Shown here: in pieces, positions 8,751 to 62,358 of the stretch | Position numbering within the stretch: the first letter of the stretch is position 1 | Layout: each line of letters starts with the position of its first letter | DNA from: Ignavibacteria bacterium | GTDB taxonomy: Bacteria > Bacteroidota > Ignavibacteria > SZUA-365 | Direction of reading: 5' to 3' | Assembly (NCBI GenBank): GCA_002869275.1 | Contig: PKTF01000078.1 | Location: 1,839-65,838, forward strand | DNA: 64,000 nt | The notes under the pieces: generated by a model | Told to the model about the DNA's origin: nothing | Seen by the model: the letters and a program-made list of their open reading frames with translations, nothing else | The model's database searches: none | Made by a program: the position numbers and the translations under genes

Positions 8751-11309
8751 ATGAAGCGCTATCTCTTTGCCACCCTATTCCTCGTGATGTTTCCGACGCT
8801 CATGTTCGCGCAGCGGGACATTGTGGAACTTTCAAATGCGGACCCGACAACGTGCTGCTTCGAAATGCTGCTCGCCAATGAGCACGCACCGGAGTCTTCC
8901 CTTGACCGGGTGCGCCTGGTGTCTTTGACTCCGGGGGTACAGTTTACACCCGACGCCAATGGTCCCTGGCCGGAGCATCTGGTCAGCGAAACGGTGCTGG
9001 AATTCGGAGAGGAGGGAAATGAGCTGCCGACGGGAGAGCTGCTCGAGGGCTTCCTGCTGTGTATTGAGCGGCTTCCGGGAGCCCCCAGCAACTTTCGCGT
9101 CGCCTGGACGACGGAATTCGAGGGGAACCTCATGGACACCGATACGCTGGAATTGCAGTGCGAGTCGATGGAGAGCTACTGCGATTCCGTCAGCGTGCTC
9201 CCGTTCGCACCCCCGATCAAACCTGAGGGGAGCTGCTGTTTCGATATCACCCTGCATAACCTGCACGATCCGGAAGGTGCTCTGAACCGGTTCACCGTGC
9301 GCATGTTCGATCCGCGTGCAACGATCGTCAGCGTTTCGGGATCTCCCTGGCCGGTAGCTGATCAATCCGCCACAGAAGTGACATTCAAGGCTTCAGGCGA
9401 TTCCCTCGCGACAGGAATGTCTCTCGGCGGTTTCCGCATCTGCATATCTCCGCCGGATGGGCAATCCGCTTCCGTACCTCTGTTCTGGACCTCAGGCAAT
9501 GACGATATCGTGGTATGTGAAGGAGTCGCTTTCGCAGAATGCGACATCACGGAGAATCCGCGCTGTGATTCCATATTCCACCAGGAACAGCAGGACTGCA
9601 GCATCAGCGTCGGTTTCACCAACCTCCATATTCCTCGCGGCAACATCGACGGCTTCCGCGTCCGCGTGCTCACCACCGGCGGCGGTATCGATACCGCCAC
9701 TGCTCCGCAGGGATGGGATGTCGCGAGTCAATCCGCACTTACCGTGCGCTTCGCCAAACAGGACACACCCATTGGTTCCGGCGAAACAGCCGACGGTTTC
9801 ACCCTGCGCTTCAAAGCACCCACCGGCCGCTTTTTCGATGTCGCGATCTGTACGATGCTGGACGATGCGGTCATCTGCTGCGACACCATTCAACTGGAAT
9901 GCGATCCGCCGCCACCGACGTTCTGTTATTCACTGCTGATCGATGCCGTACCGAATACCTGTACCTACGACCTCGGTTTCGTGAATACGCATCAGCCGAC
10001 ATCGGCCGTGAACGATTTTCATGTTCGCCTGCAAACCGATGGTGCTTCCATCGCCGATGCTTCTCCGCCGGGAAACTGGTTCATCGCCAGCAACGACGGA
10101 CGAAACATCATTTTCCGCGATACCACGGGCATCGTGCTGCCGGACGAGGAGCAGAGCGGCTTCATGCTGTCGCTCGCACCGGGTGACGGAGACGGACGCA
10201 TCATTTTCGAATGGTGCACTTCACTCGACGGTACAGTCAATTGCTGCGATATCGCCTCTGTGTTCTGCGATCCCCCCGTCGATCGCTGCGATTCCCTGTA
10301 CGTACTTCCCGGTGAAGGGTACTGTCAGTACGAAGCGGGATTCGCAAATCTGCACGTCCCGGTTTCAGGAGTGGATGCTTTCCATGTCACATTGGACGAT
10401 GCCGAGACCATGCTGCTCGATGCGGAGGCGCCGGACGGCTGGACCATCGACGAGCTTTCTGAAGGTGGCGCGACGTTTGTGATAGATGGCGCCGCATTGT
10501 CCACCGGTGTCGCGCAGGAAGGCTTTATTCTGAAGCTCCTGCCCTCGGCACAGTCGAAACGGATTCCGCTCACTCTGTGTACTTCGCTGGACGACAGTAC
10601 ACTGTGCTGTGATACCGTCAGTGTGTTCTGCGAATTCGAGATCGTGCAATGTGACGTGATCGATGTCATCACGGACATTGACCAGGCCTGCTGTTTTGAG
10701 TTCGAATTGCAGAATGTGCACCTGCCTCGCAGCGGAATCGATGCCCTGAATGTGGAAATCCTCACCCCGGATGTCATTTTCTATACATCCACGGTCGAAG
10801 ACGCAGCCGGCTGGGAGCACCTGACGAATAGTCGCCGCATAGGCTGGCGCGCTCTCGACGCGGCTCTGCCATCGGGTGAAACGCTCGGCGGCTTCAAGGT
10901 GTGCTATGACAATGATGCGATCGGGAACGCCGATTTCCAGATTTCCGTGCAGACTCTCAGCAGCGGTCGCATTCTCTGCATCGACACGCTGACGATCAAA
11001 TGCGATCGTACGCTGAGTGTGGAGCGTCTCGAGGGCATGCTTCCATCGCGCTACGGGCTTCATCAGAACTATCCGAATCCCTTCAATCCCTCAACGACGA
11101 TTGAGTTCGACTTGCCCGTTCCGGCGGATGTCATACTCAGCCTGTATGATACCGAGGGAAGGCTATTGATGGATCTCGGATCAGGAAATTATCTGGCGGG
11201 TACATACCGCGTATCCCTCGATGCTTCATCACTCCCGAGCGGCGTGTACTTCTATCAGTTGCGGACATCGGAGTTCATACAGACACGCTCGCTGCTTCTG
11301 CTCAGGTAG
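8751..11309 (+). CDS. large secreted T9SS cargo protein built of six ~115-aa cysteine-rich repeats of an unrecognised domain
   Basis: Signal peptide MKRYLFATLFLVMFPTLMFA. Six repeats each carrying …C(D/Y)S…C…(F/L)xNxHxP…(V/I)(D/N)xFxV… and ending …CCD(T/I)xx(V/L)xC. C-terminal T9SS CTD YPNPFNPSTTIEFDLP…GVYFYQLR. Confidence 0.75.
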   Translation: MKRYLFATLFLVMFPTLMFAQRDIVELSNADPTTCCFEMLLANEHAPESSLDRVRLVSLTPGVQFTPDANGPWPEHLVSETVLEFGEEGNELPTGELLEGFLLCIERLPGAPSNFRVAWTTEFEGNLMDTDTLELQCESMESYCDSVSVLPFAPPIKPEGSCCFDITLHNLHDPEGALNRFTVRMFDPRATIVSVSGSPWPVADQSATEVTFKASGDSLATGMSLGGFRICISPPDGQSASVPLFWTSGNDDIVVCEGVAFAECDITENPRCDSIFHQEQQDCSISVGFTNLHIPRGNIDGFRVRVLTTGGGIDTATAPQGWDVASQSALTVRFAKQDTPIGSGETADGFTLRFKAPTGRFFDVAICTMLDDAVICCDTIQLECDPPPPTFCYSLLIDAVPNTCTYDLGFVNTHQPTSAVNDFHVRLQTDGASIADASPPGNWFIASNDGRNIIFRDTTGIVLPDEEQSGFMLSLAPGDGDGRIIFEWCTSLDGTVNCCDIASVFCDPPVDRCDSLYVLPGEGYCQYEAGFANLHVPVSGVDAFHVTLDDAETMLLDAEAPDGWTIDELSEGGATFVIDGAALSTGVAQEGFILKLLPSAQSKRIPLTLCTSLDDSTLCCDTVSVFCEFEIVQCDVIDVITDIDQACCFEFELQNVHLPRSGIDALNVEILTPDVIFYTSTVEDAAGWEHLTNSRRIGWRALDAALPSGETLGGFKVCYDNDAIGNADFQISVQTLSSGRILCIDTLTIKCDRTLSVERLEGMLPSRYGLHQNYPNPFNPSTTIEFDLPVPADVILSLYDTEGRLLMDLGSGNYLAGTYRVSLDASSLPSGVYFYQLRTSEFIQTRSLLLLR

Positions 11310-12520: not shown

Positions 12521-15500
12521 ATGAGATCCTTTCTGCTGTCCTGCGCGTTCCTTTTTGTCATGCTTCCCGCTTCTCTGTTTTCCCAGGCACAACTCAGTAT
12601 GAGCATTCATCTGCCCGATGTGCAGGTGAACGTGGCTGCGGAGTCGTATGAACCGAATCCGCTGCCGGTGACGGCAACCATTTATAATACAGGAAATGCT
12701 GCCTCGGACTCACTGATGGCGCGTATCAGCCTGGTGACCGGGCTCGCTCTTGACAGCAGCGAACAGTCGGTGATGATCAAGCGACCCGCTTCCGCTGTTG
12801 TGCCGCCCGGCGACTCGGCTACCGTCGTGTGGCAGATCGTCGTTCCTCCCGCTTTTTCCATGAAGAATTATCGCGTCTATGTCTGGCTGAAATACGGTGC
12901 AAGTGATTCGCTTTCAACGAATTATCTGTTCACCGTTCCGGCGATGACAGCCCCGGATCTCGTGATGACACCCAACGGACTGCCGGATCTCGCCGTACGG
13001 CCTGATTCACTGGGATATCAGGGGAATCCGTTTGCGGTGAACTTCCGTTTCACCAACGCCGGCGGAACCACGGCCGACAGTGTGTCCGTATTCCTGGAAC
13101 TGCCCGTGGATTACGAGTTGGATCCCCCGACACAGGACAATCCCATGGTATTTCCGGGACTGATGAAACCGCAGGCCGCCGGGGGACCCCGCTACTACGA
13201 GACCTGGACGGTGCGATACGTGGGTGCCGCGCGCGCGCAGCGTACCGACACCCTGCGGCTGCACGCGCGTGCGAAGGATATTACCGGCGGACTTGTCACA
13301 TCATCCGAGGAGCTTCCGATCAATGTGGCAGGAATGAATCCCGCCCTGGACATCTCATTCATAGATCCGGGTTCGCTGCAGTTCGACAGCGCGAATATTT
13401 ATACGCCTCAGCCCTATCCTCTCATCGTTCGGCTGACAAACAATAGTGAACAGTGGACGGTGCTCAAGGACATGGATTTTACACTACTTGGAGTAGGTGT
13501 CTCCACACAGGATCCGCTCAATCGTCTGCTGCCCGCGCTGTCGCCGGGGAGCCATCTCGACCTGACCTGGCGCATCGCAGTCGAACGACGGAATTTTGCC
13601 AGACAGTTTGTCGGACGCGCCGCAGTAAGGGATTTCGAGCTTTACGAGAAAGGAGACCAGCGCATCGTATCGGTTCCCGGTCAGCCATACGCCCTCACTG
13701 TTCAGGATCCCAACGTACCAGATTCCCTTTCACGCAACGCGGCTGGAAGCAATCTGCTTACACGCACCATACCATTGTCGTATCGTCTGTTGAATGAGAC
13801 CTGGTACAACAATACCGTCGTGTATGTCAAGGTTCAGTCGATGGGACAGGACATTGACGGACCGCCGTTCAGGGAACATCAGCCTATGCTCGCACTGCGT
13901 CCGGGTGAGAAAAGCGCCGCCCTGCAAGACACGTTCACCGTGCAGCCCGCGCTGAAAGACCGCGTGGTATCGTTTTCCGTGCTGGCCTACACCGATCTGG
14001 GAGACACGGCTAAGGCCGTCTACCCGGTACGTATTCCCGGCGTGATGCCTGTGTTCAGCCTGACGCGCAGGGGTCCCGAAGCACTTGCCTATCTGCCCGG
14101 CGGCACGTATACGCCTAATCCCTTCTCCCAGGAATATACCCTGCGCAATGAAGGACATGTGGCAGTACGGATTGACTCGATCGTACTTCGTTATCAGATG
14201 GATGGCGTCACATCCGCGCAGCCACTGCGTCGCGACATCGGCTGGATGCTCCAGCCCGGCGACAGCATGTTGACGCGATGGGATTTCTCCGCCTACGTGC
14301 GGGATACGCTGCGGCGACTGCCGATGCAGGTCACGGCCTATATGTCGGGTGAGTATGCCGCATCAGTGGGACATGTGCTTGAAATCCCGGCACTCTTCCC
14401 TGTGCTGACCACATCGGTGAGCGGACCGGATACACTGAGCTATGACCCGATAACCACGTACACTCCGAATCCGTTTACCAAGACTCTTCTTCTGCGCAAT
14501 ACCGGCACAGCCGATCTTCATCTGGACAGTGTTACACTCGAGTTCTCGGATGCCCTGGTGACGCTGGAGAGTCCGCGTACCTGGTCTGACGGACACATCA
14601 TCCAGCCCGACAGTGCGCTGTCACTTTCGTGGACGCTGAGTGCGGGCGAGCGGGATTCTGAAGTGCAGCTGCCGATGGATTTCCGGATTCACCACTCTGC
14701 AGGCAAAACCGATGTGCAGCAGACAACAGTGTATATTCCCGCTCTGAGGCCGGGTCTCGATGCTTCGATTCTTGGTAACGCGCAGCTGGTGATCGACGAA
14801 GAGGATATCTACCGCCCTGATCCCTTCACCAAAACCGTTCGTATTTACAACTCAGGTACGGCCGATCTTTTCATCGACAGCATGTCCGTTTCCTTTACTG
14901 ATCCCGGACTGCAGCTCATTGAGGAGCCGTCTCGCGTGATCAACGCGACCGTCAGTGCCGGAGACGAGCTGCTGGAGGACTGGAATTTCAATGCGGCACC
15001 GCACGCCTCAGCCGGGTACGTGAGTATCAACTTCATCGTCTACCACAGTGGCGGGGAGTCTCTACCCCTGCGAGGTGAGATTTACATCCCGGGAGAGCCC
15101 TTCGCGTTCTCGCTTGCGGATACGAACCTTCCGGACAGGCTGTTCGCGCGTCCCGACGGCCAGGGATACGAAGGCAATCCCGTGGTGCTGTCCTACACCG
15201 CGCACAACGACGCATGGTTTGCCACGACGCTTTCGCGCGTCAATGTCGAACTCGAGGGAAACGGGGTACAGATGCTGACACCGCAGCCCTGGATTCCGGC
15301 GGTTACGCTGGGTGCTCATCAGAAAACAGACGTGCTGAAAGACTCGTTCTTTGTCTTTCCCGCCCAGATCGATCGCACCATCCGTGTGCGCATAAGTATC
15401 GAGGGCAGCCGCGGACTCGGAGACAGCCAGGAGTTTCTACTCTTTGTTCCGCGTATTATTTCCACCGCGGCGGAGAACGTGGACGCGCCTGCGGATTTTG

Positions 15501-15760
15501 CCATCCAGGCCCTGTACCCGAATCCTGTCTCAAGCAGGCTGGGCGGAATGCTGACTTTCCGCATACGCAGCAAGGCAGCATTTCAGTGGGATATCACGGA
15601 CATTCTTGGACGTCGTGTCCGCAGGTCCACCGTGGAGGACGAAGCCCCCGGGTCAGTCCTCCGGAATGTGACGCTTGATGGCCTGCCACAGGGCAGTTAC
15701 CTTCTACGCGTACAGAGCGGAAAGAAGATATTGACGCGGAGCTTCCTCATTCTTGAATAA
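12521..15760 (+). CDS. giant secreted T9SS cargo protein with ~7 CARDB-like repeats
   Basis: Signal peptide. Repeats with (Y/F)xPNPFxxxxxxxNxGxxxxxxxxV, for example YTPNPFSQEYTLRNEGHVAVRIDSIVL and YRPDPFTKTVRIYNSGTADLFIDSMSV. C-terminal T9SS CTD LYPNPVSSRLGGMLTFRI…GSYLLRVQ. Confidence 0.75.
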   Translation: MRSFLLSCAFLFVMLPASLFSQAQLSMSIHLPDVQVNVAAESYEPNPLPVTATIYNTGNAASDSLMARISLVTGLALDSSEQSVMIKRPASAVVPPGDSATVVWQIVVPPAFSMKNYRVYVWLKYGASDSLSTNYLFTVPAMTAPDLVMTPNGLPDLAVRPDSLGYQGNPFAVNFRFTNAGGTTADSVSVFLELPVDYELDPPTQDNPMVFPGLMKPQAAGGPRYYETWTVRYVGAARAQRTDTLRLHARAKDITGGLVTSSEELPINVAGMNPALDISFIDPGSLQFDSANIYTPQPYPLIVRLTNNSEQWTVLKDMDFTLLGVGVSTQDPLNRLLPALSPGSHLDLTWRIAVERRNFARQFVGRAAVRDFELYEKGDQRIVSVPGQPYALTVQDPNVPDSLSRNAAGSNLLTRTIPLSYRLLNETWYNNTVVYVKVQSMGQDIDGPPFREHQPMLALRPGEKSAALQDTFTVQPALKDRVVSFSVLAYTDLGDTAKAVYPVRIPGVMPVFSLTRRGPEALAYLPGGTYTPNPFSQEYTLRNEGHVAVRIDSIVLRYQMDGVTSAQPLRRDIGWMLQPGDSMLTRWDFSAYVRDTLRRLPMQVTAYMSGEYAASVGHVLEIPALFPVLTTSVSGPDTLSYDPITTYTPNPFTKTLLLRNTGTADLHLDSVTLEFSDALVTLESPRTWSDGHIIQPDSALSLSWTLSAGERDSEVQLPMDFRIHHSAGKTDVQQTTVYIPALRPGLDASILGNAQLVIDEEDIYRPDPFTKTVRIYNSGTADLFIDSMSVSFTDPGLQLIEEPSRVINATVSAGDELLEDWNFNAAPHASAGYVSINFIVYHSGGESLPLRGEIYIPGEPFAFSLADTNLPDRLFARPDGQGYEGNPVVLSYTAHNDAWFATTLSRVNVELEGNGVQMLTPQPWIPAVTLGAHQKTDVLKDSFFVFPAQIDRTIRVRISIEGSRGLGDSQEFLLFVPRIISTAAENVDAPADFAIQALYPNPVSSRLGGMLTFRIRSKAAFQWDITDILGRRVRRSTVEDEAPGSVLRNVTLDGLPQGSYLLRVQSGKKILTRSFLILE

Positions 15761-15785
15761 ACTGAACGCCTTTCCACACAAAGCG

Positions 15786-18731: not shown

Positions 18732-18825
18732 CCGGGTCTGATTGACTTTTCTTTCTGATTGCCTTACTCTGAGTGCATTCGAATCAGAGAAAAATCTCCT
18801 CAAATACTGTCTCGGAGGATATATC

Positions 18826-20196
18826 ATGCAGCGTTCCCGCATCATGTTCATGATCATCGTGTGCTGCGCATGTGCCATCCAACTCAACGGACAGGTGTAT
18901 TTCGAGACCAGTCTGCACGCGACACGCCAGGGGAAGGTACACTGGTACGAGAGTGGATTCTACCTTCTCACGAGCGTGGATATCAAGGACCTGGGATGTA
19001 CCTCCTGCCACGGACCGACCGATGCCGACGGTAATGCCTATACCGGCGAGTACAAGCCAGGATGCGTGGACTGTCACCCCACCGGCGACTTTTCGCGCGA
19101 AGCGCTCACCGAGCAGCAGTGTCTCGGTTGCCACGGAAGGCAGAATGCGGAAATCAATTCGCTGGGATTGAAGGACGTGCACCGCGACGAAGGGGTGGAA
19201 TGCTGGGACTGTCACAAGGCCACCGAAATCCACGGCGAGGAAACCGGTCATGTCTCAATGTGGGAGGCGGGAGCCATCACGGCCTACTGCACGGACTGTC
19301 ACAGCCGCTTGCCCGAAGGACACGACCAGTATGACCCCCATGCGGGCAAGCTGCATTGCAGCGCCTGCCATACCTCCACGGTGATTACCTGCTACAACTG
19401 TCATTTCGAAAGCCAGGTGCAGAGTCACGTCAAACGCGCGAAGCAGACGCTGTCGGGTTTCGTCATGCTGGTCAACCGCGAGAAGGACGGGAAAGTGGGG
19501 ACGGCGTCGTTTCAATCCCTGACCTGGCAGGGCAAATCGTTCGTCGCCTTTGCGCCCTATCACGCGCACGCCATCGAGGAGGAAGGTCGACGCTGCGGCG
19601 CCTGCCACCTGAATCTCGGAGGCAGCAATACCGCGATAGAGGAATACAACAGCACGGGCAGAATTCAATTCGCATCCTGGAATGTCTCAGACAGCACGCT
19701 CAGCTGGCTGCGCGGCGTCGTACCGATTCCATCGGACTACACGCAGAGCCTGAAAATGGATTTTATCACGTATAACGGCAGCACCGCGGATCCGGCGGGT
19801 CCGAGCGCGAACTGGTCGCTCATCGGAGCCGAATGGACGGCGCAGCACATGCTTTATGCCACACCACTGACAACAGCACAGATGGCAAAGCTGGGTATGA
19901 CTGCGACGGATGTCGATCGCGTAGGTCCAGCTGAGAGTTTCGCCCTGCAGCAGAACTATCCGAATCCGTTCAATCCCTCGACGACCATCGTATACAGCGT
20001 CGGACGGGCCGGAAATGTGATGCTCACCGTGAGTGATACACAGGGCCGTATCGTGAGAACGCTTGTCGCTCAGCATCAGGACGCCGGACGCTACTCCGTT
20101 GTTCTCAACGCCGATGATTTGCGCAGCGGTGTATACCTGCTGCATCTGGAAGCGGGCAGTTTCCGCAGTACGAAGAAAATGCTATTGCTGCGGTAG
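18826..20196 (+). CDS. octaheme c-type cytochrome with T9SS C-terminal sorting domain (predicted cell-surface cytochrome)
   Basis: Eight CxxCH motifs: CTSCH, CVDCH, CLGCH, CWDCH, CTDCH, CSACH, CYNCH, CGACH. Signal peptide MQRSRIMFMIIVCCACAIQLNGQ. SD ggagg 8 nt upstream. C-terminal QNYPNPFNPSTTIVYSV…GVYLLHLEAGSF CTD, homologous to the CTDs of the other cargo in this window. Confidence 0.8.
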   Translation: MQRSRIMFMIIVCCACAIQLNGQVYFETSLHATRQGKVHWYESGFYLLTSVDIKDLGCTSCHGPTDADGNAYTGEYKPGCVDCHPTGDFSREALTEQQCLGCHGRQNAEINSLGLKDVHRDEGVECWDCHKATEIHGEETGHVSMWEAGAITAYCTDCHSRLPEGHDQYDPHAGKLHCSACHTSTVITCYNCHFESQVQSHVKRAKQTLSGFVMLVNREKDGKVGTASFQSLTWQGKSFVAFAPYHAHAIEEEGRRCGACHLNLGGSNTAIEEYNSTGRIQFASWNVSDSTLSWLRGVVPIPSDYTQSLKMDFITYNGSTADPAGPSANWSLIGAEWTAQHMLYATPLTTAQMAKLGMTATDVDRVGPAESFALQQNYPNPFNPSTTIVYSVGRAGNVMLTVSDTQGRIVRTLVAQHQDAGRYSVVLNADDLRSGVYLLHLEAGSFRSTKKMLLLR

Positions 20197-20210: not shown

Positions 20211-20254
20211 GAAAACGCGCGCACTGTCCGCTCGGCCGGGCAGTGCGTTTTTTT
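20211..20254. terminator. bidirectional Rho-independent terminator after the cytochrome gene
   Basis: aaaacgcgcgcactg…cagtgcgttttttt: GC-rich hairpin flanked by an A-run and a T-run. Confidence 0.7.
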
Positions 20255-20950: not shown

Positions 20951-21013
20951 GAAACAGAAACGCGCTCATTTTCGTTAAATAAGTATATGCACTTCCATAC
21001 AAGGGGTTTCGTC

Positions 21014-21826
21014 ATGAAACGCACAAGGTATTTTGCATCGCTCACATTGGTCGTAGCCGCGGCGATGTTTGTGGTCAGCTGCGGTACGGTTCCGGTGACA
21101 GGACGCAGCCAGCTCAATCTGATTCCCGCATCGACCATGATGTCGATGAGCTATCAGCAGTACGGGGATTTCCTCAAATCAAATCGGCTCAGCAGCGACC
21201 AGAACAAAGTAATGATGGTACGCAGCGTCGGCATGAAGATCAAAGGCGCGGTTGAACGTTATTTCGCGCAGAAAGGAATCTCCGGCGAACTCGAGGGCTA
21301 TAAATGGGAATTCAACCTCGTGGAGAGCAAAGATGTGAATGCCTGGTGCATGCCCGGCGGTAAGGTGGTTATTTACACCGGCATTCTGCCGATCACGCGA
21401 GATGAAACAGGGCTGGCGGTCGTCATGGGACATGAGGTCGCGCATGCCATCGCCGAACACGGAAACGAGCGTATGAGCCAGGGCTTGCTGACACAGTTGG
21501 GCGGCGTCGCGCTATCGGAAGCCATCAAAGACAAGCCCGCGCAGACGCAGCAGTTGTGGATGACAGCTTTCGGTGTGGGCGCCCAGGTTGGGGTGCTGCT
21601 GCCCTTCAGCCGTCTGCATGAGAGTGAAGCCGATCATCTCGGACTCATTTTCATGGCTATGGCGGGGTTCAATCCCAACGAAGCCGTGAACTTCTGGCAG
21701 CGCATGGCCGCGCTGAAAGGAGGACAGTCGCCGCCTGAGTTTCTCAGCACACATCCATCCGACGAGACGCGCATCGCAGATATCAGGAAGCATCTTCCAG
21801 ACGCGATGAAGTATTACAAAAAATGA
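21014..21826 (+). CDS. M48-family zinc metallopeptidase lipoprotein
   Basis: Lipobox LTLVVAAAMFVVSC. HExxH motif HEVAHAIAEH with a downstream Glu (…HESEADHLG). Confidence 0.7.
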   Translation: MKRTRYFASLTLVVAAAMFVVSCGTVPVTGRSQLNLIPASTMMSMSYQQYGDFLKSNRLSSDQNKVMMVRSVGMKIKGAVERYFAQKGISGELEGYKWEFNLVESKDVNAWCMPGGKVVIYTGILPITRDETGLAVVMGHEVAHAIAEHGNERMSQGLLTQLGGVALSEAIKDKPAQTQQLWMTAFGVGAQVGVLLPFSRLHESEADHLGLIFMAMAGFNPNEAVNFWQRMAALKGGQSPPEFLSTHPSDETRIADIRKHLPDAMKYYKK

Positions 21827-22146
21827 TGAGAATCTCGATTCCCTCGGTCTCGACTGAAATGCAGGGCGTGTTGTGCGCCCTGCTTCTTTTCGCTGCTGCA
21901 AGCACAATCGCGATCGCGCAGGAAACCGCTGGAGGAAATGCAGACAGGGGAGCGTCGTCTGATTCACAGAGCTGGACGATGCATTCGTCCGCTTCGAAAA
22001 TTCTGCGCACGACTTTCCGCAGCGCATCGAATACCAACGCACGGGTGACGACGAGCTGACTGCGCGTATCGCCGGTGTTTCTATTCCCGCACAACTGCGT
22101 ATTTTACGTACCATGCATTTTCTGTCCATGAAACAGGACATCGACT

Positions 22147-39933: not shown

Positions 39934-40130
39934 CAGCATCGACATCGGCGTTTGACACGGTGCCTCGCGAGGCACCGTTCGTATTATTCGTGAATCCACC
40001 GCCGCGCATCGGCATCATTCAGGAAAATAATGGGAATTTCTCCTCGAGTACGGTTGAGATAGAGTTGTTCAACGCCTACATTTCTTCTGATCGGTATGAT
40101 CATACATCACCCTCACAGAGAAGGCATCTC

Positions 40131-48880: not shown

Positions 48881-48962
48881 TCCCGCGCAAAAAGCGTATA
48901 ATAAGAATGGGCCTGTCTCGCTTCGTGCGGGACGGGCCCATGTTTTTCAGTGGCAGGTAATC

Positions 48963-50765
48963 CTAGCGGACGAGCAGCATGCTCCGCCGAATCGTCTGTT
49001 CTTCGCCGCGCAGAACTGCGATGTACATCCCTGCCGGAAGATTTCCGGACAGGAAGTGCGCGGTGTAGCGGCCTCCGGCAAGATCTCCGTCATGAAGCAC
49101 GGCCACCTCGCGTCCGCGGGTGTCGTAGACGGACAGGCGGCAGTATCCGGCTTGCGCCAGGGAGAATGGCAGTGTCGTAGAAGGGGTGAAGGGATTGGGA
49201 TAATTCTGCGCGAGGTCCATTGAAAGAGGCTGCGAATCCTCCCGGACTCCGACCGGTGTGTCACCGAGCACGCGCAGTGTGATAGCACTTTCGGTGTCGC
49301 CGCCGAAAGAAATACTGTTCACGGAATTATCCACCGGACCCATCACATAATTCCCGAAATCCCTGTCCTGGTTAGGCAGCAGCGCCATGCCGCCGTGGAC
49401 CTGCGCTTCGATCACATGTCCGGCGCGCACGGTATGCACCGTGGTATTCAGTTCGAACGTCGCAGTGACACCAGTTCCGCCTTCCTGCTGCAGGTGTCCG
49501 CGGGTGATCGGTACACGCGTATTCGCAGTCGGATCCACATCGAACAGCAGCACGTTGGTCTGTAATTGTGAACCTGTGCCGCTCAGCTGCAGGCGCACGC
49601 TGCCGGTGACGGCTGAAATGGTCATGTCCTTTGGCAGCGGCTCGCTGCTGAACAGCTGTGCCTGTGAACCGATCAGATTCACATAGGTGATCACCCTCTG
49701 ACTGCGCGTGACCTGTGGCCTCACACGAAGCCCTTCATCAGTGAAATACAATGGGAGCTCTTCAACCTCCTCCGGCAGCGGTAGGGCCGACATCAGCCAG
49801 TACTCCGGTTCGTCCTCTGCGTACACATGCATTTCACCATTACCGGCATCGAACATCACTACGGCGCTGTCGGGAGAAGCCACGCTCGCGAGCGACTCGT
49901 CGCCTTTCAACCAGTAATCCATCCAACGCGCCACGACGTCGTTGACGAAGGTCGCCTGCGCTGGATCCGACGGCATGCTGTGTCCTGCCGGATAGAGCAC
50001 GATGCGCTTGGGTCCGGCAACATTCGCGAACTGCCTGAGAGCGGCGCTGGGATCGAAGAAACCGTCGTAATAACTCACGAAAATCGCCACAGGTGTGGTG
50101 ACGCCGCTTTCACGCGATTTCGTGGAGGCGTTTTCCAGGTAGCTGCGCATGTAGGTGAAGTCGCCGCTTTCGCGGGCGCGCGTGATCGAGTCGAGTACCG
50201 CGGGATCGAAATTCACGCTGGACGAAAGGGTTGCGGCGGCAAAGGTCCAGTTCAGTGCATTGTCTTCCAGCCAGTTTTCCCGGAAGCGCCCGTTCGCCAC
50301 GACCGACACCACGGCCTGCACGCCCATGTCGTAGGCGGCGGCGTTCCAGGCGTGGATGCCGCCCTGCGATCCGCCCATGACGCCCACACGGTCGGCACGC
50401 ACATCGGGCAGCGCCTTCGTGAAGTTGATCATGGTCTGCAGATCCGACAGCAGGTTCTCGGAAGTGAAGAAGTCGAACATGCCTCCGGAAGCACCCTGTC
50501 CTCGCACGCTGTACGCGGTGGCGACGTAGCCCGCATCGTTGAAGCCGCGCGCCAGTGAGGCGTTGTTGTTCTTGCTTCCACCGAAGCCGTGCACGAGAAG
50601 GACGGCAGGATAGCCGCCCGGCGGAGCCGGAGTGGAGGGATAGATGTAGAACGCGTCGAGAACGACATCGTCCGCCGCGATGATCGTGGTATCCTGTCGT
50701 GTCTGTGCTTCTGCGGACAGTGCCAGCGAGGCAATCATGCAAAGGAGGAAAAACTGCTTCATCAT
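48963..50765 (-). CDS. secreted alpha/beta-hydrolase (GGSQGG nucleophile elbow; S9/CE7/CocE-like) with T9SS C-terminal sorting domain
   Basis: Signal peptide MMKQFFLLCMIASLALSAEA. VLLVHGFGGS…VGVMGGSQGG. C-terminal QNYPNPFTPSTTLPFSL…GMYIAVLRGEE CTD. Confidence 0.7.
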   Translation of the reverse strand: MMKQFFLLCMIASLALSAEAQTRQDTTIIAADDVVLDAFYIYPSTPAPPGGYPAVLLVHGFGGSKNNNASLARGFNDAGYVATAYSVRGQGASGGMFDFFTSENLLSDLQTMINFTKALPDVRADRVGVMGGSQGGIHAWNAAAYDMGVQAVVSVVANGRFRENWLEDNALNWTFAAATLSSSVNFDPAVLDSITRARESGDFTYMRSYLENASTKSRESGVTTPVAIFVSYYDGFFDPSAALRQFANVAGPKRIVLYPAGHSMPSDPAQATFVNDVVARWMDYWLKGDESLASVASPDSAVVMFDAGNGEMHVYAEDEPEYWLMSALPLPEEVEELPLYFTDEGLRVRPQVTRSQRVITYVNLIGSQAQLFSSEPLPKDMTISAVTGSVRLQLSGTGSQLQTNVLLFDVDPTANTRVPITRGHLQQEGGTGVTATFELNTTVHTVRAGHVIEAQVHGGMALLPNQDRDFGNYVMGPVDNSVNSISFGGDTESAITLRVLGDTPVGVREDSQPLSMDLAQNYPNPFTPSTTLPFSLAQAGYCRLSVYDTRGREVAVLHDGDLAGGRYTAHFLSGNLPAGMYIAVLRGEEQTIRRSMLLVR

Positions 50766-50947
50766 TCGCCCGAAAAAGGTGCTACCTGTAGTGTAATGCA
50801 CACAGTATACGAAAATCCTTTAATTGAGAATACATGCTGCGGAGAGGGAAGGACTGCTGCATTGTCCGCCCCTGTGAATTTTCCGTATCTTTGACGATCT
50901 ACGCTTCGGCGTTGCGCACAGTCCTTGCACCATTTCAGGTTGACACC

Positions 50948-53077: not shown

Positions 53078-53096
53078 TTCTCACGGGCGGCGCACG

Positions 53097-53876: not shown

Positions 53877-53905
53877 AAAAAATCCCGCGCGAGGCGGGAT
53901 TCAAT
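53874..53905 (+). terminator. Rho-independent terminator after the MBL hydrolase gene
   Basis: A8-atcccgcgcgaggcgggat-tcaatttcttc. Confidence 0.55.
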
Positions 53906-53942
53906 TTCTTCTTCAGTGAAACGCAGTGCCGGGGAGGGCTGC

Positions 53943-54779: not shown

Positions 54780-54917
54780 GGAGTGTCTCCGATGTCGGCT
54801 AAGTATGTGCAGCAAAAGGCAGGCTGCATCACCAGGTCCTCACACATTACGAGGAAAATTAGAAAAATGCAATGTTCTGATAAGAAAGCGTTAATTAAGG
54901 CCGTATTTGAGCAGCAG

Positions 54918-54947
54918 CAAAAAAAATCCGGCAAAGTTGCCGGATCC
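54918..54947 (-). terminator. Rho-independent terminator after lgt (minus strand)
   Basis: Hairpin atccggcaaagttgccggat, followed on the minus strand by T8. Confidence 0.6.
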
Positions 54948-54987
54948 TAAAAGACAGATATTTCACGAAATTATCAGTGGCGGATGA

Positions 54988-55943: not shown

Positions 55944-58900
55944 TCAGTGAATCACGAGCAGGTTCGTGGTCTGAACCTGTGCGCCGGACTGCACGCGCAC
56001 CCGGTAATTGCCCGTAGGCAGGCTGCCGGTGTCGAGATTAACTGTATGCGAACCGGCGGTCAGCTCTGCACGCATGCTCTGCAGCACGAGACGTCCGAGG
56101 TTGTCAAAAACATCGATCTGTGTACCTGCACGCGATTCCAGCGTCAGTCCGAGTGTGAGTCCGCGGCTGGAGCTGGTCGAAATCGGATTCGGGTACATGT
56201 AATCGATATGGAATCCATTCGCTGCCACGGGACGTTCCACCGAGGTGGTGCCGTAGGGATCGAAGTTCGAACGGAACTTGAAAATGTCGATGCCCGCGGT
56301 GTAGACGTCCGAAAGAGATGTATTGGAGAATGACGTCGATGTGGAGACGTTGGCGAAGTTGCTGGGTACGGCCTGCACCGTCCAGCTTTGAGCCATGTCG
56401 TCGGATACCCAGGCATTTGTCCCCTGGATGAACCAGATACGACGCCCGTTTTCTTCCATCTCAACGGTACCGCCAGTGCTGACCTGAATGGTATTGCGCT
56501 GCAGCCACGTGTCACCACCATCTTCGGTGACAGCAAGCATGTTGGTGCCGCCCAGGTTGGTTTGTGTGGTGAAACGGATGATGCCCCGCTTGCTGTCGGC
56601 GAATGCCATGTCCACCGAATGCTTGCTCGGCGTGGTGATACTCGTCCAGCTCTGACCGCGGTCAGTCGAGCGGTAGATCTTGCTGTTGTTCGTACCGAAC
56701 CACAGCGTGTCGCCCGCGGCGTCGTATGCATTGTTCCATCCGGCTTCACCCGTTGGGGCATTTACCGGATTCGCGAGCGGTGTCCATGTAGCACCTCCGT
56801 CGTCGGTAGTCGCGATACCCCACACACCGTCCTTCGGATCGCCCTGCAGAATACCGTTATTGATGTCGTACATGTGTATCCAGTTTACGAAACCGGTGAA
56901 ACCGGCCACGGAAGTACCGCTCCAGGTCGAACCGCTGTTGACAGTACGGAAAACTTCCGCTGCGCCGGTGCTCGGACCTGTACCCACCAGGGCGACGTTA
57001 TTCGTTACGGCGTCGATGCAGTAGACACCCTTGCCCGAGGGGAAGCCCGAACTGTTGCCGACGCTCCACGAGCCGCCGCCGTTGAGACTGCGAACGAAAT
57101 AATCACGGCTGGAGACATTTGCGGTTCCCCAGACGGAAGTGACCGAAGCGGCGTCGATGGACGTGAAGTAGGGTGCGCCGAAATTCATCGAGGTGTGCCA
57201 GGCATCGTTGAGGAATATGCTGGCACGGCCCATGAAGTAGTCCACATATTCACCATCGATGATTTCCATGCGCACGGGAATGTACCCTTCCGAGGTTTCC
57301 GGTTCATCGGAGAGCGCAATGTCGAATTCCACCGTTTTGGTTCCGAAGGTCTCGATGACACCGAGAGGAAAATCGTTTGCATCGGTGGAGATCGAAGGAT
57401 CATCGAGATTGACGCGCAGGATGGCATTCTCCGAGGTGGGAGCGAGAACATTTTCCACCACGACTGTGACGTGTGCCGTCTGTCCCGGTTCGGAAAAGCG
57501 CGAACCGCTTTCGTAAGAGATGGCGAAGCTTTTCATGCGGACGCCGGGGATGTCGGTCAGATTTTCATTGAGAGATACAGCTTTGAATGCGTTGATGCGT
57601 CCGTAGCGCTTGCTTGCCGGCGAGGCACCGAAGCGATCAGACGTCACGCGGATCTGCGCGGCAACCTGGTCGGGTGTCCAATCCGGATGTACAGACATGA
57701 CCAGCGCGGCGACACCGGCCGCCAGCGGGGCGGAGAAGGATGTACCGGTCGGGCTCGTGTAGCTGCCGCCCTTGCGCGTCGTGGTGATGCCGTTGCCGGG
57801 TGAGTAGACGTGGACGGAAGTGCCGTAAGTGCACCACTGTGAGGCGTTACCGTTGGATTCCACCGAACCCACGTTCAGCACGTGGTCGAGTGCCGATGGT
57901 GTGTGCGGGATATAGTCGTTATCCAGCGGATCGTTGCCTGAGGAACCGACCACGAGTGAACCCATGGCGGTGACGTCATCGACGATATCCTGAAGGGCCT
58001 TGACGATCGGACCAGTGCCTCCCCAGCTGCAGTTGATGATGTGGGCACCCATCTGCGCTGCATAGAGAATTCCGTCATAACCCGCGGCAATGCCTGTCGA
58101 ACTGTTGGCCGCGGCCTTGATGGCGAGGATTTTGGAGCTGAACGAACTGCCCGCGACACCCGTTGCGTTGTCGGTGCGTGCTGCGGCACAGCCCGATGTG
58201 TTGGTGCCATGGCCGATCGCGCCGTCCATGGGGTTGTTATCGGGTATGGGACTCTGTGAACTGCCGTCACCGATGAAATCCCAGCCGTGCCAGTCGTCGA
58301 CCTTACCGTTATTGTCATCGTCGATGCCGTTGTCCTTCAACTCCCCGTTCGTACCCCATTCACCGGGATTGGTCCAGATGTTTTCCGCGAGGTCGGGGTG
58401 CGTCCAGTCCACGCCCGAATCCACGTCGCCGATGATGATTGTGGAATCGCCTTTCGTGATGTCCCAGGCTTCCTTGAGCTTCATCACATCAATAGCCCAC
58501 TGCTGTGCGAGCCGCGTGTCGTTGGGAGTGTAATGGAAGGGGAAGATGTAGTACGGTTCGGCGTATTCCACGCTCGGATCGTTGCTGACTTCCATGGCCA
58601 GCAGCGAGGGATTGTCGCCTGATGTATAGCGTACTTTCACCATGCGGTCGACGTTGTACCGCGGTCGCGCGGCTTTCTGCAGAGCGGTTTCTTTGTTCGT
58701 GTTGAAGGGCTCGACCTTTTCCGCGCCAATGCGTTCCAGCAGCTGATCGAGGCTTTGTATTCCGAGGCGCGCGCCGTCCGTCGTAAAGGATTGCTGTTCG
58801 CGCAGCTTGATAATCAGAAGGTTGGGAACGGTCTGCAGACGGCCTTTCTCCGCGGAAGCGGTACGCGGTGCATCGCGTTCGGGACTATCTGCCTGCAATT

Positions 58901-58952
58901 CGACAGTGCACAACAGCAACGCTGCCGCGCAAATAAGGGAAAGAATTTTCAT
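55944..58952 (-). CDS. S8 subtilisin-family peptidase fused to BNR/Asp-box beta-propeller and T9SS C-terminal sorting domain
   Basis: Catalytic Asp (GDVDSGVDWTHPDL), His (HGTNTSG) and Ser (GTSFSAPLAAG). Asp-box repeats SxDxGxTW x6 (NSGSTWS, TDDGGATWT, TDRGQSWT, TEDGGDTWL…). CTD YMYPNPISTSS…GNYRVRVQ. Confidence 0.85.
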   Translation of the reverse strand: MKILSLICAAALLLCTVELQADSPERDAPRTASAEKGRLQTVPNLLIIKLREQQSFTTDGARLGIQSLDQLLERIGAEKVEPFNTNKETALQKAARPRYNVDRMVKVRYTSGDNPSLLAMEVSNDPSVEYAEPYYIFPFHYTPNDTRLAQQWAIDVMKLKEAWDITKGDSTIIIGDVDSGVDWTHPDLAENIWTNPGEWGTNGELKDNGIDDDNNGKVDDWHGWDFIGDGSSQSPIPDNNPMDGAIGHGTNTSGCAAARTDNATGVAGSSFSSKILAIKAAANSSTGIAAGYDGILYAAQMGAHIINCSWGGTGPIVKALQDIVDDVTAMGSLVVGSSGNDPLDNDYIPHTPSALDHVLNVGSVESNGNASQWCTYGTSVHVYSPGNGITTTRKGGSYTSPTGTSFSAPLAAGVAALVMSVHPDWTPDQVAAQIRVTSDRFGASPASKRYGRINAFKAVSLNENLTDIPGVRMKSFAISYESGSRFSEPGQTAHVTVVVENVLAPTSENAILRVNLDDPSISTDANDFPLGVIETFGTKTVEFDIALSDEPETSEGYIPVRMEIIDGEYVDYFMGRASIFLNDAWHTSMNFGAPYFTSIDAASVTSVWGTANVSSRDYFVRSLNGGGSWSVGNSSGFPSGKGVYCIDAVTNNVALVGTGPSTGAAEVFRTVNSGSTWSGTSVAGFTGFVNWIHMYDINNGILQGDPKDGVWGIATTDDGGATWTPLANPVNAPTGEAGWNNAYDAAGDTLWFGTNNSKIYRSTDRGQSWTSITTPSKHSVDMAFADSKRGIIRFTTQTNLGGTNMLAVTEDGGDTWLQRNTIQVSTGGTVEMEENGRRIWFIQGTNAWVSDDMAQSWTVQAVPSNFANVSTSTSFSNTSLSDVYTAGIDIFKFRSNFDPYGTTSVERPVAANGFHIDYMYPNPISTSSSRGLTLGLTLESRAGTQIDVFDNLGRLVLQSMRAELTAGSHTVNLDTGSLPTGNYRVRVQSGAQVQTTNLLVIH

Positions 58953-59156: not shown

Positions 59157-62147
59157 TTAGTTAATCACCATCACGTTACGTGCCACCGTCTGTTTCGGCG
59201 TCGTCATACGCAGCACATAACTGCCAGCCGCGAGGTTTCCGATCGACACGCTGGCGCTGTGCGTTCCGATGCCCAGCGTTGCGTTCACGACTTCGCGTAC
59301 CTTGCGTCCGCTCATGTCGTACAGCGCGAGCACGACAGGTTCGGCCTGCGTAAGCGAGATTTCCGCCGTGAGGCTGCCCTGATAAGCGGAAGCCGGCTGC
59401 GGGTACACGGAGAGAATGCGCGGCGATTCCGGCTGTGAAATCGGGTTCTGCACGGAGACGACGGCTTTGTGCGGACTCTCGTACTTGAAGATTTCGATAC
59501 CGGCAGCGAAGACCTTGCTGACGAAACCGTCATTCCATTCCGCCGCGTCGTTGACGAAGTCAAACGACAGCGGAGTGGCCTGCACGTTCCATGTCACACC
59601 GAGGTCTGTTGACGCATAAGCATTTCCAGAAGTCATGAACCAGAGACGTTCGCCTCCACGTTCGAAGACTACCGAACCATACGGCGCGGCGATGGTGGAA
59701 ATAAGGCTCCAGGTGAGACCGCCGTCAGTGGTGACCGCCAGTGTATCGGTGCCCTGGCTGTTCTGTTCGGAGAAACGCGCCACACCCGTCATCTGGTCGC
59801 GGAAGGTGATATCCGTGGCATTCTTGCTCGGTACCGGATAGGACTGCCAGTTCTGGCCACGGTCCGTCGTCCGGTAGATGATGCTGCTGTTTGTACCGAA
59901 CCAGCCATGATCGCCGATAAAGTCGTAACTGTTGTTCCACCCGGCTTCGCCCGTGGCGGCGGAAAGCGGATTGCTGATTGGTGTCCAATTGTATCCGCCA
60001 TCCGATGTCGTCGCGATACCCCAGATGTTGCTGTTGGGATCGCCCTGCAAAATGCCTTCGTTGTCGTCGAACATGTGAATCCAGTTGACGAATGGCGTCA
60101 TGGAGGCGACGCTGGTACCGGACCAGCTCTGACCACCGTCATTCGTGCGATACACTTCGGCGGCACCGGTTGTCGGACCCGTTCCAACGAGCGCGCTGAA
60201 TTCGTCGATACCGTCGATGCAGTAGACGCCTTTTCCGTCGGGATAGCCGGTACCGAAGGCAAAGACCCAGCTGTCGCCGGCGTCGGTGCTGCGGATGGCG
60301 ATATCCTGCGTAGGTACGCCATTCTCAGTGAAATCACCACTGACCCACACGTTCCAGCGATCAGGAATATCGATGGAGTTATAGGGATAGCGCAGATCGA
60401 GTGAGGTGTGCCAGCCGTCGGTCAGGTTCAGTTCGATACGAACAAGATCGAAGTCCAGGTATTGGCCGTCTGTGAATTTGAGAATGACAGGAATGTAGCC
60501 TTCCGACATGGTCGGATTCTCGGTCAGTGTCAGCGTGAACGAAATCGTCATTGATTCCATGGTATTCATGGCACCCAGCGTTGCGCTGGTCGTGTTGAGC
60601 GTGCCATAGGCCGGATCAACTTCGAGTTCCACCATGGCGTTGCTCGTCGGGGCGAGCAGGTTTTCGATCACGACCTGTACCGACGCTTCCTGTCCGGCTT
60701 CGGTGAACTGGCTGCCGGCCGAAGTCATCACGTCGTAGGATTTCACTTCGAGTCCGGGAATCTCATCGAGCGAAGCGTTCATGGAAAGCGCCTTGTAGGC
60801 ATTGGCGCGACCGTAGTGCAGCGCTTCATACTCGGTACCGAACTTGTCCGAGGTAACGCGGATCTGCTTCAGCACCTGGTCGGGAGTCCAGTCCGGGTGA
60901 ATCGCGAAAATCAGTGCGGCAAGTCCCGACATCATCGGCGCTGAGAAGGACGTACCGGTCACATTCTGGTAGCCGAAACTCATGCGCGGTGCAAGCACGT
61001 CGGTACCCGGAGCATACACATGCACCGAACTGCCGAATGCCGCCCATGGCGAGGCTGAGCCGTCCTGTTCGATGGAGCTGACCGAGAGTACGTGGTTGAG
61101 AGATGCAGGGATGAAGGGATCGAGATCATTGTTGATGACGGCATTGCCCGCGCCGCCTACCATGAGCGCACCCTTCGACCATGCGTAGTCAATTTCGTCC
61201 TGCAGTACCTGGCTGATCAGTGCATTGCTGCCCCAGCTGGCGTTGATGACCTTGCAGCCCATGTCGGCGGCGTAGCGCACGGCCCAGTAACCGGCCATGC
61301 CGGTGGTGTTGGCATCATCCTGCACCTTGATCGGAAGGATCTTGGTGTGGTAGCCGATACCGGCGATACCCTTGCCGTTGTTCGTGCGAGCAGCGGCAAC
61401 ACCGGCACCGTTTGTGCCGTGTCCGTTGAAGTCCATCGGGTCATTGTCGGGATTCGGCGCCTGCAGCGTGCCGTTGCCGATGAAATCCCAGCCGCGCCAG
61501 TCATCGGTGTAACCGTTGCCGTCGTCATCGACGCCGTTGTCCTTGAGTTCACCGTTGGTGCCCCATTCACCCGGATTGACCCAGATGCTGCCGGCGAGGT
61601 CTTCGTGGTTGTAGTTCACGCCCGAATCGATGTATCCGATCACGATGGTCGAATCGCCCATGGTGATATCCCAGGCTTCTTCCATCTTCAGAGAAGCGAT
61701 GGCCCACTGGGTGGAGAGGCGCGGATCGTCCGGGGTGTGGGTGGGACGCAAGTTGATGAACGGTTCGGCGTATTCCACGGCGGGATCGGCCGAAATCTCC
61801 TCTGCGAGGGCGAGGGCGTCCACCGGAGCGCTGTAGCGCACGAGCATGATGCGCGCGAGGCTTTCTTCTTCAGGTGAAGTATAGCCCTTACGCAGCGAAA
61901 GCGACGGGTGCAGCGCTTCGACCGATGTGGTCATGATGCGATGCAGCACCTTGTCGATGTTCTGAAGGCCGAAGCTCTTTGCTCCGGGTGCGACAGACTG
62001 CACATTTTTCAGTTTGATGAACATCATGCCGGGCACGAAATCGGCCTGCGACAGGGAAGTGTTCTTCCCCGGACGCTCGACTTTCTCGGCACCGGCTACG
62101 CTGCAGAGCAGCAGCAGCAATGCGATAACGGGTACGGCTGTACGCAT
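59157..62147 (-). CDS. S8 subtilisin-family peptidase with BNR/Asp-box propeller and T9SS CTD (tandem paralogue)
   Basis: Same architecture as the upstream gene: GYIDSGVNYNHEDL, HGTNGAG, GTSFSAPMMSG. Asp-boxes TNDGGQSWS, TSDGGYNWT, TDRGQNWQ, TDGGLTWS. CTD …SVYPQPASAYQGSL…GSYVLRMT. Confidence 0.85.
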   Translation of the reverse strand: MRTAVPVIALLLLLCSVAGAEKVERPGKNTSLSQADFVPGMMFIKLKNVQSVAPGAKSFGLQNIDKVLHRIMTTSVEALHPSLSLRKGYTSPEEESLARIMLVRYSAPVDALALAEEISADPAVEYAEPFINLRPTHTPDDPRLSTQWAIASLKMEEAWDITMGDSTIVIGYIDSGVNYNHEDLAGSIWVNPGEWGTNGELKDNGVDDDGNGYTDDWRGWDFIGNGTLQAPNPDNDPMDFNGHGTNGAGVAAARTNNGKGIAGIGYHTKILPIKVQDDANTTGMAGYWAVRYAADMGCKVINASWGSNALISQVLQDEIDYAWSKGALMVGGAGNAVINNDLDPFIPASLNHVLSVSSIEQDGSASPWAAFGSSVHVYAPGTDVLAPRMSFGYQNVTGTSFSAPMMSGLAALIFAIHPDWTPDQVLKQIRVTSDKFGTEYEALHYGRANAYKALSMNASLDEIPGLEVKSYDVMTSAGSQFTEAGQEASVQVVIENLLAPTSNAMVELEVDPAYGTLNTTSATLGAMNTMESMTISFTLTLTENPTMSEGYIPVILKFTDGQYLDFDLVRIELNLTDGWHTSLDLRYPYNSIDIPDRWNVWVSGDFTENGVPTQDIAIRSTDAGDSWVFAFGTGYPDGKGVYCIDGIDEFSALVGTGPTTGAAEVYRTNDGGQSWSGTSVASMTPFVNWIHMFDDNEGILQGDPNSNIWGIATTSDGGYNWTPISNPLSAATGEAGWNNSYDFIGDHGWFGTNSSIIYRTTDRGQNWQSYPVPSKNATDITFRDQMTGVARFSEQNSQGTDTLAVTTDGGLTWSLISTIAAPYGSVVFERGGERLWFMTSGNAYASTDLGVTWNVQATPLSFDFVNDAAEWNDGFVSKVFAAGIEIFKYESPHKAVVSVQNPISQPESPRILSVYPQPASAYQGSLTAEISLTQAEPVVLALYDMSGRKVREVVNATLGIGTHSASVSIGNLAAGSYVLRMTTPKQTVARNVMVIN

Positions 62148-62358
62148 AAGCAATCCAATAGCTATGTGTAAAAATCGGTTGGCTAAAGTGACGTAATATA
62201 CGCTTTGCGTCCGCCAAACGTAAGGGAGTTGTCCGTACCCGTTTACAGCTCGAATGCCTGGTCTCCAGGAACCGGCAATATCCGGCCATCTGCATTTCCT
62301 CACATCCCGATTCTCCGTACTTTTATGGATTCATGTTACCCGATGACAAGGAACCGTC

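Follow-up and report, generated by a model that had tools for sequence, protein, structure and literature searches.

An octahaem cytochrome carrying a type IX secretion sorting domain in an Ignavibacteria bacterium: a candidate cell-surface electron carrier

How might a bacterium place a haem-loaded cytochrome on its outer surface? This question is raised by a gene at positions 18,826 to 20,196 (+) of a 64,000-nucleotide stretch of the Ignavibacteria bacterium assembly GCA_002869275.1 (contig PKTF01000078.1, positions 1,839 to 65,838 of the forward strand), which is hereafter called the window. The gene encodes a protein in which eight c-type haem-binding motifs are followed by a C-terminal tail resembling type IX secretion system (T9SS) sorting signals. 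We propose, with moderate confidence, that the product is a T9SS-exported cell-surface electron-transfer cytochrome, which is fed by a separate outer-membrane conduit.

The gene lies in an open reading frame (ORF) listed at 18742..20196 (+), and translation from the internal ATG at 18826 gives a product of 456 residues. This start is in line with the N-termini of the homologues, and a Shine-Dalgarno sequence (GGAGGA, 18814-18819) lies seven bases 5' of it. GenBank holds the identical protein as 'MAG: hypothetical protein C0600_03150 [Ignavibacteria bacterium]', where MAG stands for metagenome-assembled genome. The coding region is divided as follows, with AlphaFold2 confidence given as the predicted local distance difference test (pLDDT).

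18826..18891 (+): Sec signal peptide, residues 1-22, from sequence features judged by eye; the predicted cleavage exposes Gln23
18892..19425 (+): mainly helical haem domain, residues 23-200, with CxxCH motifs 1-7; from sequence, conservation, the AlphaFold2 model and weak c7/c3 Pfam matches
In the haem domain, ahead of the first haem site: conserved N-terminal motif F-x-T-S-L-H31-x-T-R34-x-G-K37-x-x-W-Y41
18997-19011, 19063-19077, 19120-19134, 19201-19215, 19288-19302, 19357-19371 and 19390-19404 (+): CxxCH motifs 1-7
19426..19860 (+): beta-strand-rich domain, residues 201-345; from AlphaFold2 secondary structure (block pLDDT 90-97) and conservation
19594-19608 (+): eighth CxxCH motif, residue 257, in the beta-strand-rich domain, as is the invariant His248
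19861..19956 (+): linker, residues 346-377, including the conserved Met353; from conservation and the AlphaFold2 model
19957..20196 (+): predicted type A T9SS C-terminal sorting domain, residues 378-456, ending in KKMLLLR, and the stop codon

The eight CxxCH motifs, which begin at residues 58, 80, 99, 126, 155, 178, 189 and 257, are all in frame, as a preliminary description of the sequence had counted them. A chance origin of the eight is excluded, because a survey of all stop-to-stop ORFs of at least 80 residues in the six frames of the window revealed multiple CxxCH motifs in just one further case, the octahaem gene at 39960-41519, which is unrelated. The window protein has no CxxCK motif. 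The eight sites are kept in about 120 homologues, the fifth being sometimes CxxxCH or CxxxxCH. Outside the motifs, His31, His119, His136, His172 and His248 are invariant in the family, His166 and His177 are 94-97% conserved, and Met145 and Met353 are conserved at 89% and 95%, respectively. These seven His and two Met residues are nine candidate sixth ligands, and all eight haems could be six-coordinate. Arg34 and Tyr41 are also invariant, and Lys37 is near-invariant, all near His31. The AlphaFold2 model of the window protein, built on 65 family members, has a mean pLDDT of 90.1. On the strength of its sequence, the assignment of the protein as an octahaem c-type cytochrome is supported.

The N-terminus (MQRSRIMFMIIVCCACAIQLNG, followed by Gln23) has a basic n-region, a hydrophobic core and, as judged by eye, a likely cleavage site before Gln23. 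This layout agrees with the Sec signal peptide of the preliminary description. At least 90% of the 65 family members share Gln23, in keeping with the 'Q-rule' (Gln at +1 of signal-peptidase-I substrates) that is reported to be frequent in Ignavibacterium (PMC5837995). No lipobox is conserved.

At the other end, residues 378-453 match TIGR04183 with 40.6 bits (cut-off 23) and PF18962 with 38.8 bits (cut-off 27), and the tail, which had been likened to the T9SS pattern from the sequence alone, therefore passes both curated thresholds. In the AlphaFold model it is predicted to have the fold of solved T9SS tails, a compact Ig-like beta-sandwich; the solved matches are a protease and a nuclease. 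A Foldseek search of the model against the PDB returned Ig-like matches to the tail only. The terminus, K-x-hydrophobic-K/R, is typical of the family, and the tail is present in 72 of the 75 family genes that are complete at the 3' end (metagenomic loci and loci fetched earlier). These profile matches and the model support the C-terminal domain as a genuine type A T9SS domain.

The window itself contains further tails of this kind. A hidden Markov model (HMM) of the family tails matched five other ORFs of the window at their C-terminal ends (E 1e-8 to 8e-29), the same number of secreted proteins to which the tail had been attributed earlier. Six tail-bearing proteins, the octahaem cytochrome included, lie within 64 kb. 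The five others all match PF18962, two of them above 27 bits, two just under it and one with 20.2 bits. Three of them are peptidases (two S8 subtilases and one of S15 type), and the remaining two are large proteins in which no catalytic domain could be named.

8718..11309 (+): 863-residue secreted protein with no assigned function and a T9SS tail (family-tail HMM, PF18962)
12521..15760 (+): 1079-residue protein with repeats and a T9SS-like tail (26.9 bits on PF18962, just below the 27-bit cut-off)
48963..50801 (-): peptidase of the S15/alpha-beta-hydrolase type with a T9SS-like tail (20.2 bits on PF18962; E 1.5e-24 with the family-tail HMM)
55944..58952 (-): S8 subtilase with a sortilin/BNR domain and a T9SS tail (family-tail HMM, PF18962)
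59157..62303 (-): another S8 subtilase, also with a T9SS-like tail (26.3 bits on PF18962, just below the cut-off)

In contrast to the known type A T9SS cargos, such as mirolase of Tannerella forsythia, NucA of Flavobacterium johnsoniae and the gingipains of Porphyromonas gingivalis, the passenger in the window protein is an octahaem cytochrome. Other known T9SS cargos are hydrolases, adhesins and motility proteins.

The protein belongs to a large family. More than 100 full-length homologues with 46-77% identity were listed, nearly all with PF18962. The named hosts are Ignavibacteria, Ignavibacteriales, Bacteroidetes, Calditrichia, KSB1 and Latescibacteria MAGs, all from phyla of the Fibrobacteres-Chlorobi-Bacteroidetes (FCB) group. 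An exhaustive search with the body only gave 400 representative clusters at E<=1e-3, of which 169 reached E<=1e-30, and a metagenome scan with the body-only alignment gave 79 loci. A scan of a genome collection with the full-length alignment gave 80 loci (L005-L084), which all encode generic tail-bearing proteins and none the cytochrome; its patterns mostly reflected NYPNPFNP, a motif of the tail. The cytochrome body is not covered by any model in Pfam or NCBIfam, only weak c7/c3 matches being found, although many members are already annotated in databases as 'T9SS type A sorting domain-containing protein'.

Longer members of 700-1150 residues are tandem repeats of the whole octahaem module in two or three copies, with 14-16 or 24 haems. 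Examples are P0121 (1150 residues), P0123 (978 residues) and P0003/P0004 (798 residues), and a single T9SS tail is present in some of these forms and absent from others. The tail is missing from three family genes (L103 7608-9077, L135 2645-5020 and L097 8818-10476). The ends of the L103 and L135 products are Asp/Gly-rich repeats that look dockerin-like by eye, and that of L097 is different; no Pfam tail model matched any of the three.

More distant relatives (33-45% identity, about 340-400 residues) stop where the body stops, and many of them start with lipoprotein-like signals. In a profile of 31 tail-less relatives, the eight haem sites are kept, five His are invariant and a sixth is conserved in at least 90%. 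This profile retrieves Blastocatellia, Armatimonadota, Chthonomonadetes, Bipolaricaulota, Phycisphaerae, Anaerolineae, Eisenbacteria and the archaeon Geoglobus ahangari. The sorting devices found in place of the tail are a lipobox with a Thr/Pro linker, an N-terminal dockerin (one relative) and a Myxococcales GC_trans_RRR C-terminal tail (one relative). A module that, judged from these sequences, swaps its sorting or anchoring device rather than losing it would most simply work at the cell surface.

In BLASTP, the Geoglobus ahangari relative (AKG91392.1) and the window protein share 41% identity over 345 residues (E 5e-88); the relative has a lipobox, a Thr/Pro-rich linker, eight CxxCH motifs and a calculated mature mass of 46.3 kDa. 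Based on the agreement of product name, number of haems and mass, we equate it with GAH_01306 in Table 6 of the genome paper. GAH_01306 is one of four proposed terminal carriers in this archaeon and was chosen because its size matches that of an outer-surface haem protein needed to reduce Fe(III) oxides that are insoluble (PMC4600277, PMC8280799). It has the octahaem module, the eight haem sites and the conserved His residues in common with the window protein, whereas it is archaeal, is anchored by the lipobox and Thr/Pro-rich linker, lacks a T9SS tail and is a candidate from the size match only. There is no curated model for the GAH_01306-like octahaem module; the window protein is similar to it over the full length and has the same invariant columns.

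The genes around the cytochrome in related loci provide a further indication. A small cytoplasmic tetratricopeptide repeat (TPR) protein with a conserved, invariant-looking DDCPCPEL motif is encoded before the cytochrome in 37 of the 70 loci with enough upstream sequence. Among the 47 loci with more than 2.5 kb upstream, a PAS-domain sigma-54 activator lies within 1.5 kb in 26, and activator and TPR gene occur together in 21. A TGGCA-N6-TTGC element is located 17-39 nt 5' of the TPR gene in 23 of 38 loci, where about 10% of random windows score equally. The arrangement is exemplified by three loci, and about 35 more have it.

L003 6012-7980, L004 6017-7987, L085 5377-8004: units of activator, sigma-54 element and TPR gene

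Further multihaem ORFs were found in 15 of 85 loci. In five of these loci, a candidate cluster stands directly upstream of the activator-TPR-cytochrome unit.

L085 1380-5345, also L096, L098, L112 and L137: candidate porin-cytochrome cluster

Its gene order is a 4-haem cytochrome (Cyt554-like), a non-haem ORF of about 426 residues, a 14-haem and a 7-haem cytochrome. The protein of about 426 residues has a signal peptide and alternating aromatic-rich segments and matches no family; these features fit a beta-barrel and hence a putative porin. As a whole, the cluster looks like a porin-cytochrome cluster of the Geobacter type.

These clusters bear on the preliminary description, according to which the Mtr/Omc porin-cytochrome paradigm does not apply to this lineage. 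Porin-cytochrome clusters of OmbB-like and MtrB-like types have been reported in Ignavibacteria by Arbour et al., who also cite earlier reports for Melioribacter and Ignavibacterium (PMC7399161). The claim is contradicted by these published clusters and by the five or six related loci that adjoin candidate clusters of this kind. An outer protein placed by the T9SS would still need a conduit across the outer membrane, and more likely works with a porin-cytochrome complex than replaces it. The T9SS cytochrome is better seen as the outermost partner of a porin-cytochrome chain.

A surface electron-transfer role is thus suggested by the alternative sorting devices, the Geoglobus relative, the 16- and 24-haem repeats and the porin-cytochrome-like neighbours in related loci. 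Of the earlier suggestion of a surface-exposed electron-transfer cytochrome, the octahaem body and the T9SS tail stand and surface electron transfer is the best reading, whereas its use as a replacement for the porin-cytochrome route is not upheld. The following course is proposed. The precursor would be exported by Sec and cut by signal peptidase I before Gln23, as sequence features and established knowledge indicate, and the eight haems would be attached covalently at the CxxCH motifs in the periplasm by what is established of cytochrome maturation. The folded haem protein may then be recognised via its type A domain and pass through the T9SS translocon with removal of the tail (about 53 kDa with haems and tail, about 43 kDa without the tail), and would finally be anchored on the outer membrane or released. 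The source of its electrons would be a conduit that spans the outer membrane and is encoded at another place, probably as a porin-cytochrome complex. The electrons could be passed to acceptors that are insoluble or large, for instance oxides of Fe(III) or Mn(IV), humics, electrodes or partner cells; reverse flow may also occur.

In its proposed role as the outermost haem protein of an extracellular electron-transfer chain, the window protein resembles Shewanella MtrC/OmcA and the porin-cytochrome complexes of Geobacter. Both MtrC and OmcA are lipoproteins with ten haems that are exported by type II secretion, and in this reading the T9SS would do in the FCB group what type II secretion does for them and what lipid anchors do in archaea and monoderms. 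In contrast to MtrC/OmcA, the window gene is not adjoined by a gene for a porin or a periplasmic cytochrome. Membership of the protein in the MtrC/OmcA/MtrF decahaem family was rejected, as PF22113 is absent at E<=1 and the haems number eight, not ten; some homologues have only 'faint' precomputed matches to PF22113.

Several observations weigh against the proposed export and function. T9SS core genes (SprA, PorV, PorU, GldK-N) were not found among the proteins of the 64-kb window that were scanned via Pfam, NCBIfam or precomputed Pfam matches, and neither were a porin-cytochrome cluster or cytochrome-maturation genes. Because the machinery and the donor are not encoded in the window, both the export machinery and the electron donor are assumed for this genome. 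Indirect support for the machinery comes from the six tail-bearing proteins of the window and from a 2024 paper, in which Ignavibacteriota is listed among the FCB phyla other than Bacteroidota where T9SSs 'may also be present' (PMC11285876). The gene stands alone, and its neighbours, a GH3/beta-lactamase fusion, a DUF1579 protein and M48/S46 peptidases, are uninformative on redox function. An experimentally demonstrated T9SS-dependent cytochrome was not found in the open-access literature that was searched, and the role of GAH_01306 is unverified, as the review stresses (PMC8280799). Type A tails do not guarantee anchoring, and the protein could be released. The haem ligands are candidates from conservation, the AlphaFold2 model placing no haems, and Arg34, Tyr41 and Lys37 beside His31 could form an active site. 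Finally, the closest solved fold and profile matches are octahaem tetrathionate reductase (OTR), NrfB and MccA, of which OTR and MccA are enzymes acting on soluble substrates.

The last two points could indicate a surface or secreted enzyme of the OTR/NrfA/MccA lineage, which would reduce soluble nitrite, hydroxylamine, tetrathionate or sulfite outside the cell and maybe minerals too. When searched against PDB sequences, the family profile matched NrfB (1.9e-5), OTR (3.4e-5) and MccA (2e-3). The invariant SLH31-x-T-R34-x-G-K37-x-x-W-Y41 is located ahead of the first haem site, where the lysine ligand of OTR lies as well; as regards a lysine-ligated catalytic haem, what the sequences show is the near-invariance of Lys37. 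A surface terminal reductase can have such ancestry, as illustrated by the 'Swiss-army-knife' OcwA of Thermincola potens, a surface nonahaem protein whose core is related to NrfA/OTR/MccA and not to MtrC and which has weak nitrite activity (PMC6703420). OcwA resembles the window protein as a multihaem cytochrome of this ancestry at the surface (a proposed location in our case), and differs in its nine haems, two of them with open coordination, its C-terminal three-helix bundle and its Gram-positive wall. No sequence match of OcwA to the window protein or its family was found in the homologue and PDB profile searches.

The enzyme is nevertheless unlikely. Membership in the OTR family (Shewanella SO4144, PDB 1sp3) was rejected, since the window protein gave no match to the family model TIGR04315 (cut-off 375 bits) at E<=1, in contrast to 583 bits for the product of the gene at 39960-41519, and an hhalign comparison of the two spans only 36 columns. 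NrfB, which the family profile matched best, functions purely in electron transfer. There are nine conserved His and Met residues for eight haems and no CxxCK, and the modules are concatenated two or three times, which in our judgement is typical of electron conduits and not of enzymes. It is the ligand count, the NrfB-like core and the module concatenation that make the enzyme less likely. The gene at 39960-41519 (+) encodes a 519-residue octahaem cytochrome that also matches PF11783 and has no T9SS tail, and it is flanked by genes for a CorA transporter and a peroxiredoxin.

It is somewhat more improbable that the cytochrome is exported by the T9SS but released, acting in biofilms, in solution or bound to the matrix, as an electron shuttle or capacitor. 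Release is known for some cargos with type A tails in other bacteria, the window protein has no lipobox or other anchor, and its mature form has an acidic pI of about 5.6. Large extracellular multihaem proteins of Bacteroidota, proposed as capacitors, are reported in a survey of secreted proteomes that does not mention the T9SS (PMC11495043). However, the anchoring devices of relatives from other phyla, such as a lipobox or a C-terminal membrane tail, suggest that the module works attached to the cell, and Geoglobus produces no shuttle and has to touch the mineral directly (PMC8280799). An ordinary periplasmic cytochrome, with a C-terminal beta-sandwich that is vestigial or has another role, is hardly credible: T9SS machinery is assumed and not demonstrated for this genome and FlgD_ig-like and generic Ig folds also match the tail, but the tail scores 12-18 bits above the curated T9SS thresholds, has the K-x-hydrophobic-K/R terminus in nearly all homologues, is kept in 96% of complete family genes from several phyla and, outside the FCB group, is replaced by other sorting signals and not simply lost.

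What is new in the favoured T9SS-exported electron-transfer cytochrome is the combination of a multihaem cytochrome, probably at the surface, with a different export route, in a large family that has no name. No paper treating the T9SS together with a multihaem cytochrome was found in open-access full text, and a prior report elsewhere is possible. Judging by titles and abstracts, no link between the T9SS and extracellular electron transfer is made in the open-access papers found to mention both, and the papers on Melioribacter roseus do not mention a tail-bearing cytochrome. Ignavibacteria and relatives are reported to be relatively abundant on anode biofilms and at iron-cycling sites (PMC7399161). 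Extracellular electron transfer in these bacteria has so far been inferred from porin-cytochrome homologues only, and the tail-bearing octahaem family offers a concrete, testable candidate for the outermost electron carrier, along with a marker gene that is unnamed in the curated Pfam and NCBIfam models. The proposal predicts that T9SS mutants lose extracellular reduction. It would also bring a redox cofactor protein into the range of T9SS cargos, and bacterial and archaeal surface cytochromes are linked by one module.

More tentatively, and with some doubt, we suggest that the T9SS is a general route of the FCB group (Ignavibacteria, Calditrichia, KSB1, Latescibacteria and some Bacteroidota) for surface cytochromes loaded with haem. 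Extracellular electron transfer would then have a third export solution, the other two being the type II secretion of Proteobacteria and the lipid or wall anchors of archaea and monoderms, and the octahaem 'surface module' would be an ancient, portable terminal reductase that is also found in Fe(III)-respiring archaea.

The flanks of the gene contain the following features.

18742..18825 (+): 5' region with a weak sigma-70-like site, an imperfect hairpin and the Shine-Dalgarno sequence, as read from the sequence
18742-18747 and 18765-18770 (+): weak sigma-70-like site, TTGACT and TACTCT with a 17-nt spacer
18767-18789 (+): imperfect hairpin without a T-run
20219..20254 (+): intrinsic terminator, a 12-bp stem with 8 G-C pairs followed by a T7 run (-32.9 kcal/mol, z -5.05)

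The sigma-70-like site at 18742-18770 was missed by the promoter scan because its -10 hexamer matches at only 3 of 6 positions. No sigma-54 -24/-12 element was found in the 5' region of the window gene, and the window has no sigma-54 element, PAS activator or TPR pair upstream of it. The gene had been placed between two strong terminators, of which only the downstream one proved real; the upstream intergenic region folds no better than shuffled sequence (z -0.47) and contains no hairpin with a T-run. The gene is probably transcribed alone.

The upstream neighbour (15753-18731, +) encodes a 992-residue fusion of GH3 N- and C-terminal domains with a beta-lactamase-fold domain, and a homologous upstream ORF of about 1,000 residues is present in five related loci, among them L001, which is from the same genome. 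In that other assembly of the genome, the 1079-residue ORF at 12521-15760 corresponds to two abutting calls of 548 and 504 residues (L001 1134-4295), and the disagreement may reflect gene calling or a sequence difference between the assemblies. Exported peptidases are encoded at 20987-24279 and 47192-62303 (M48, two S46/Dpp7-like, M3, S15 and two S8 subtilases with sortilin/BNR), three of which have T9SS-type tails. This density of peptidases suggests a protein-degrading lifestyle. A 189-residue membrane protein at 5869-6438 (+) is similar to CruF, a carotenoid hydratase of archaea, with a TIGR03460 match (E 1.9e-15) that stays below the cut-off.

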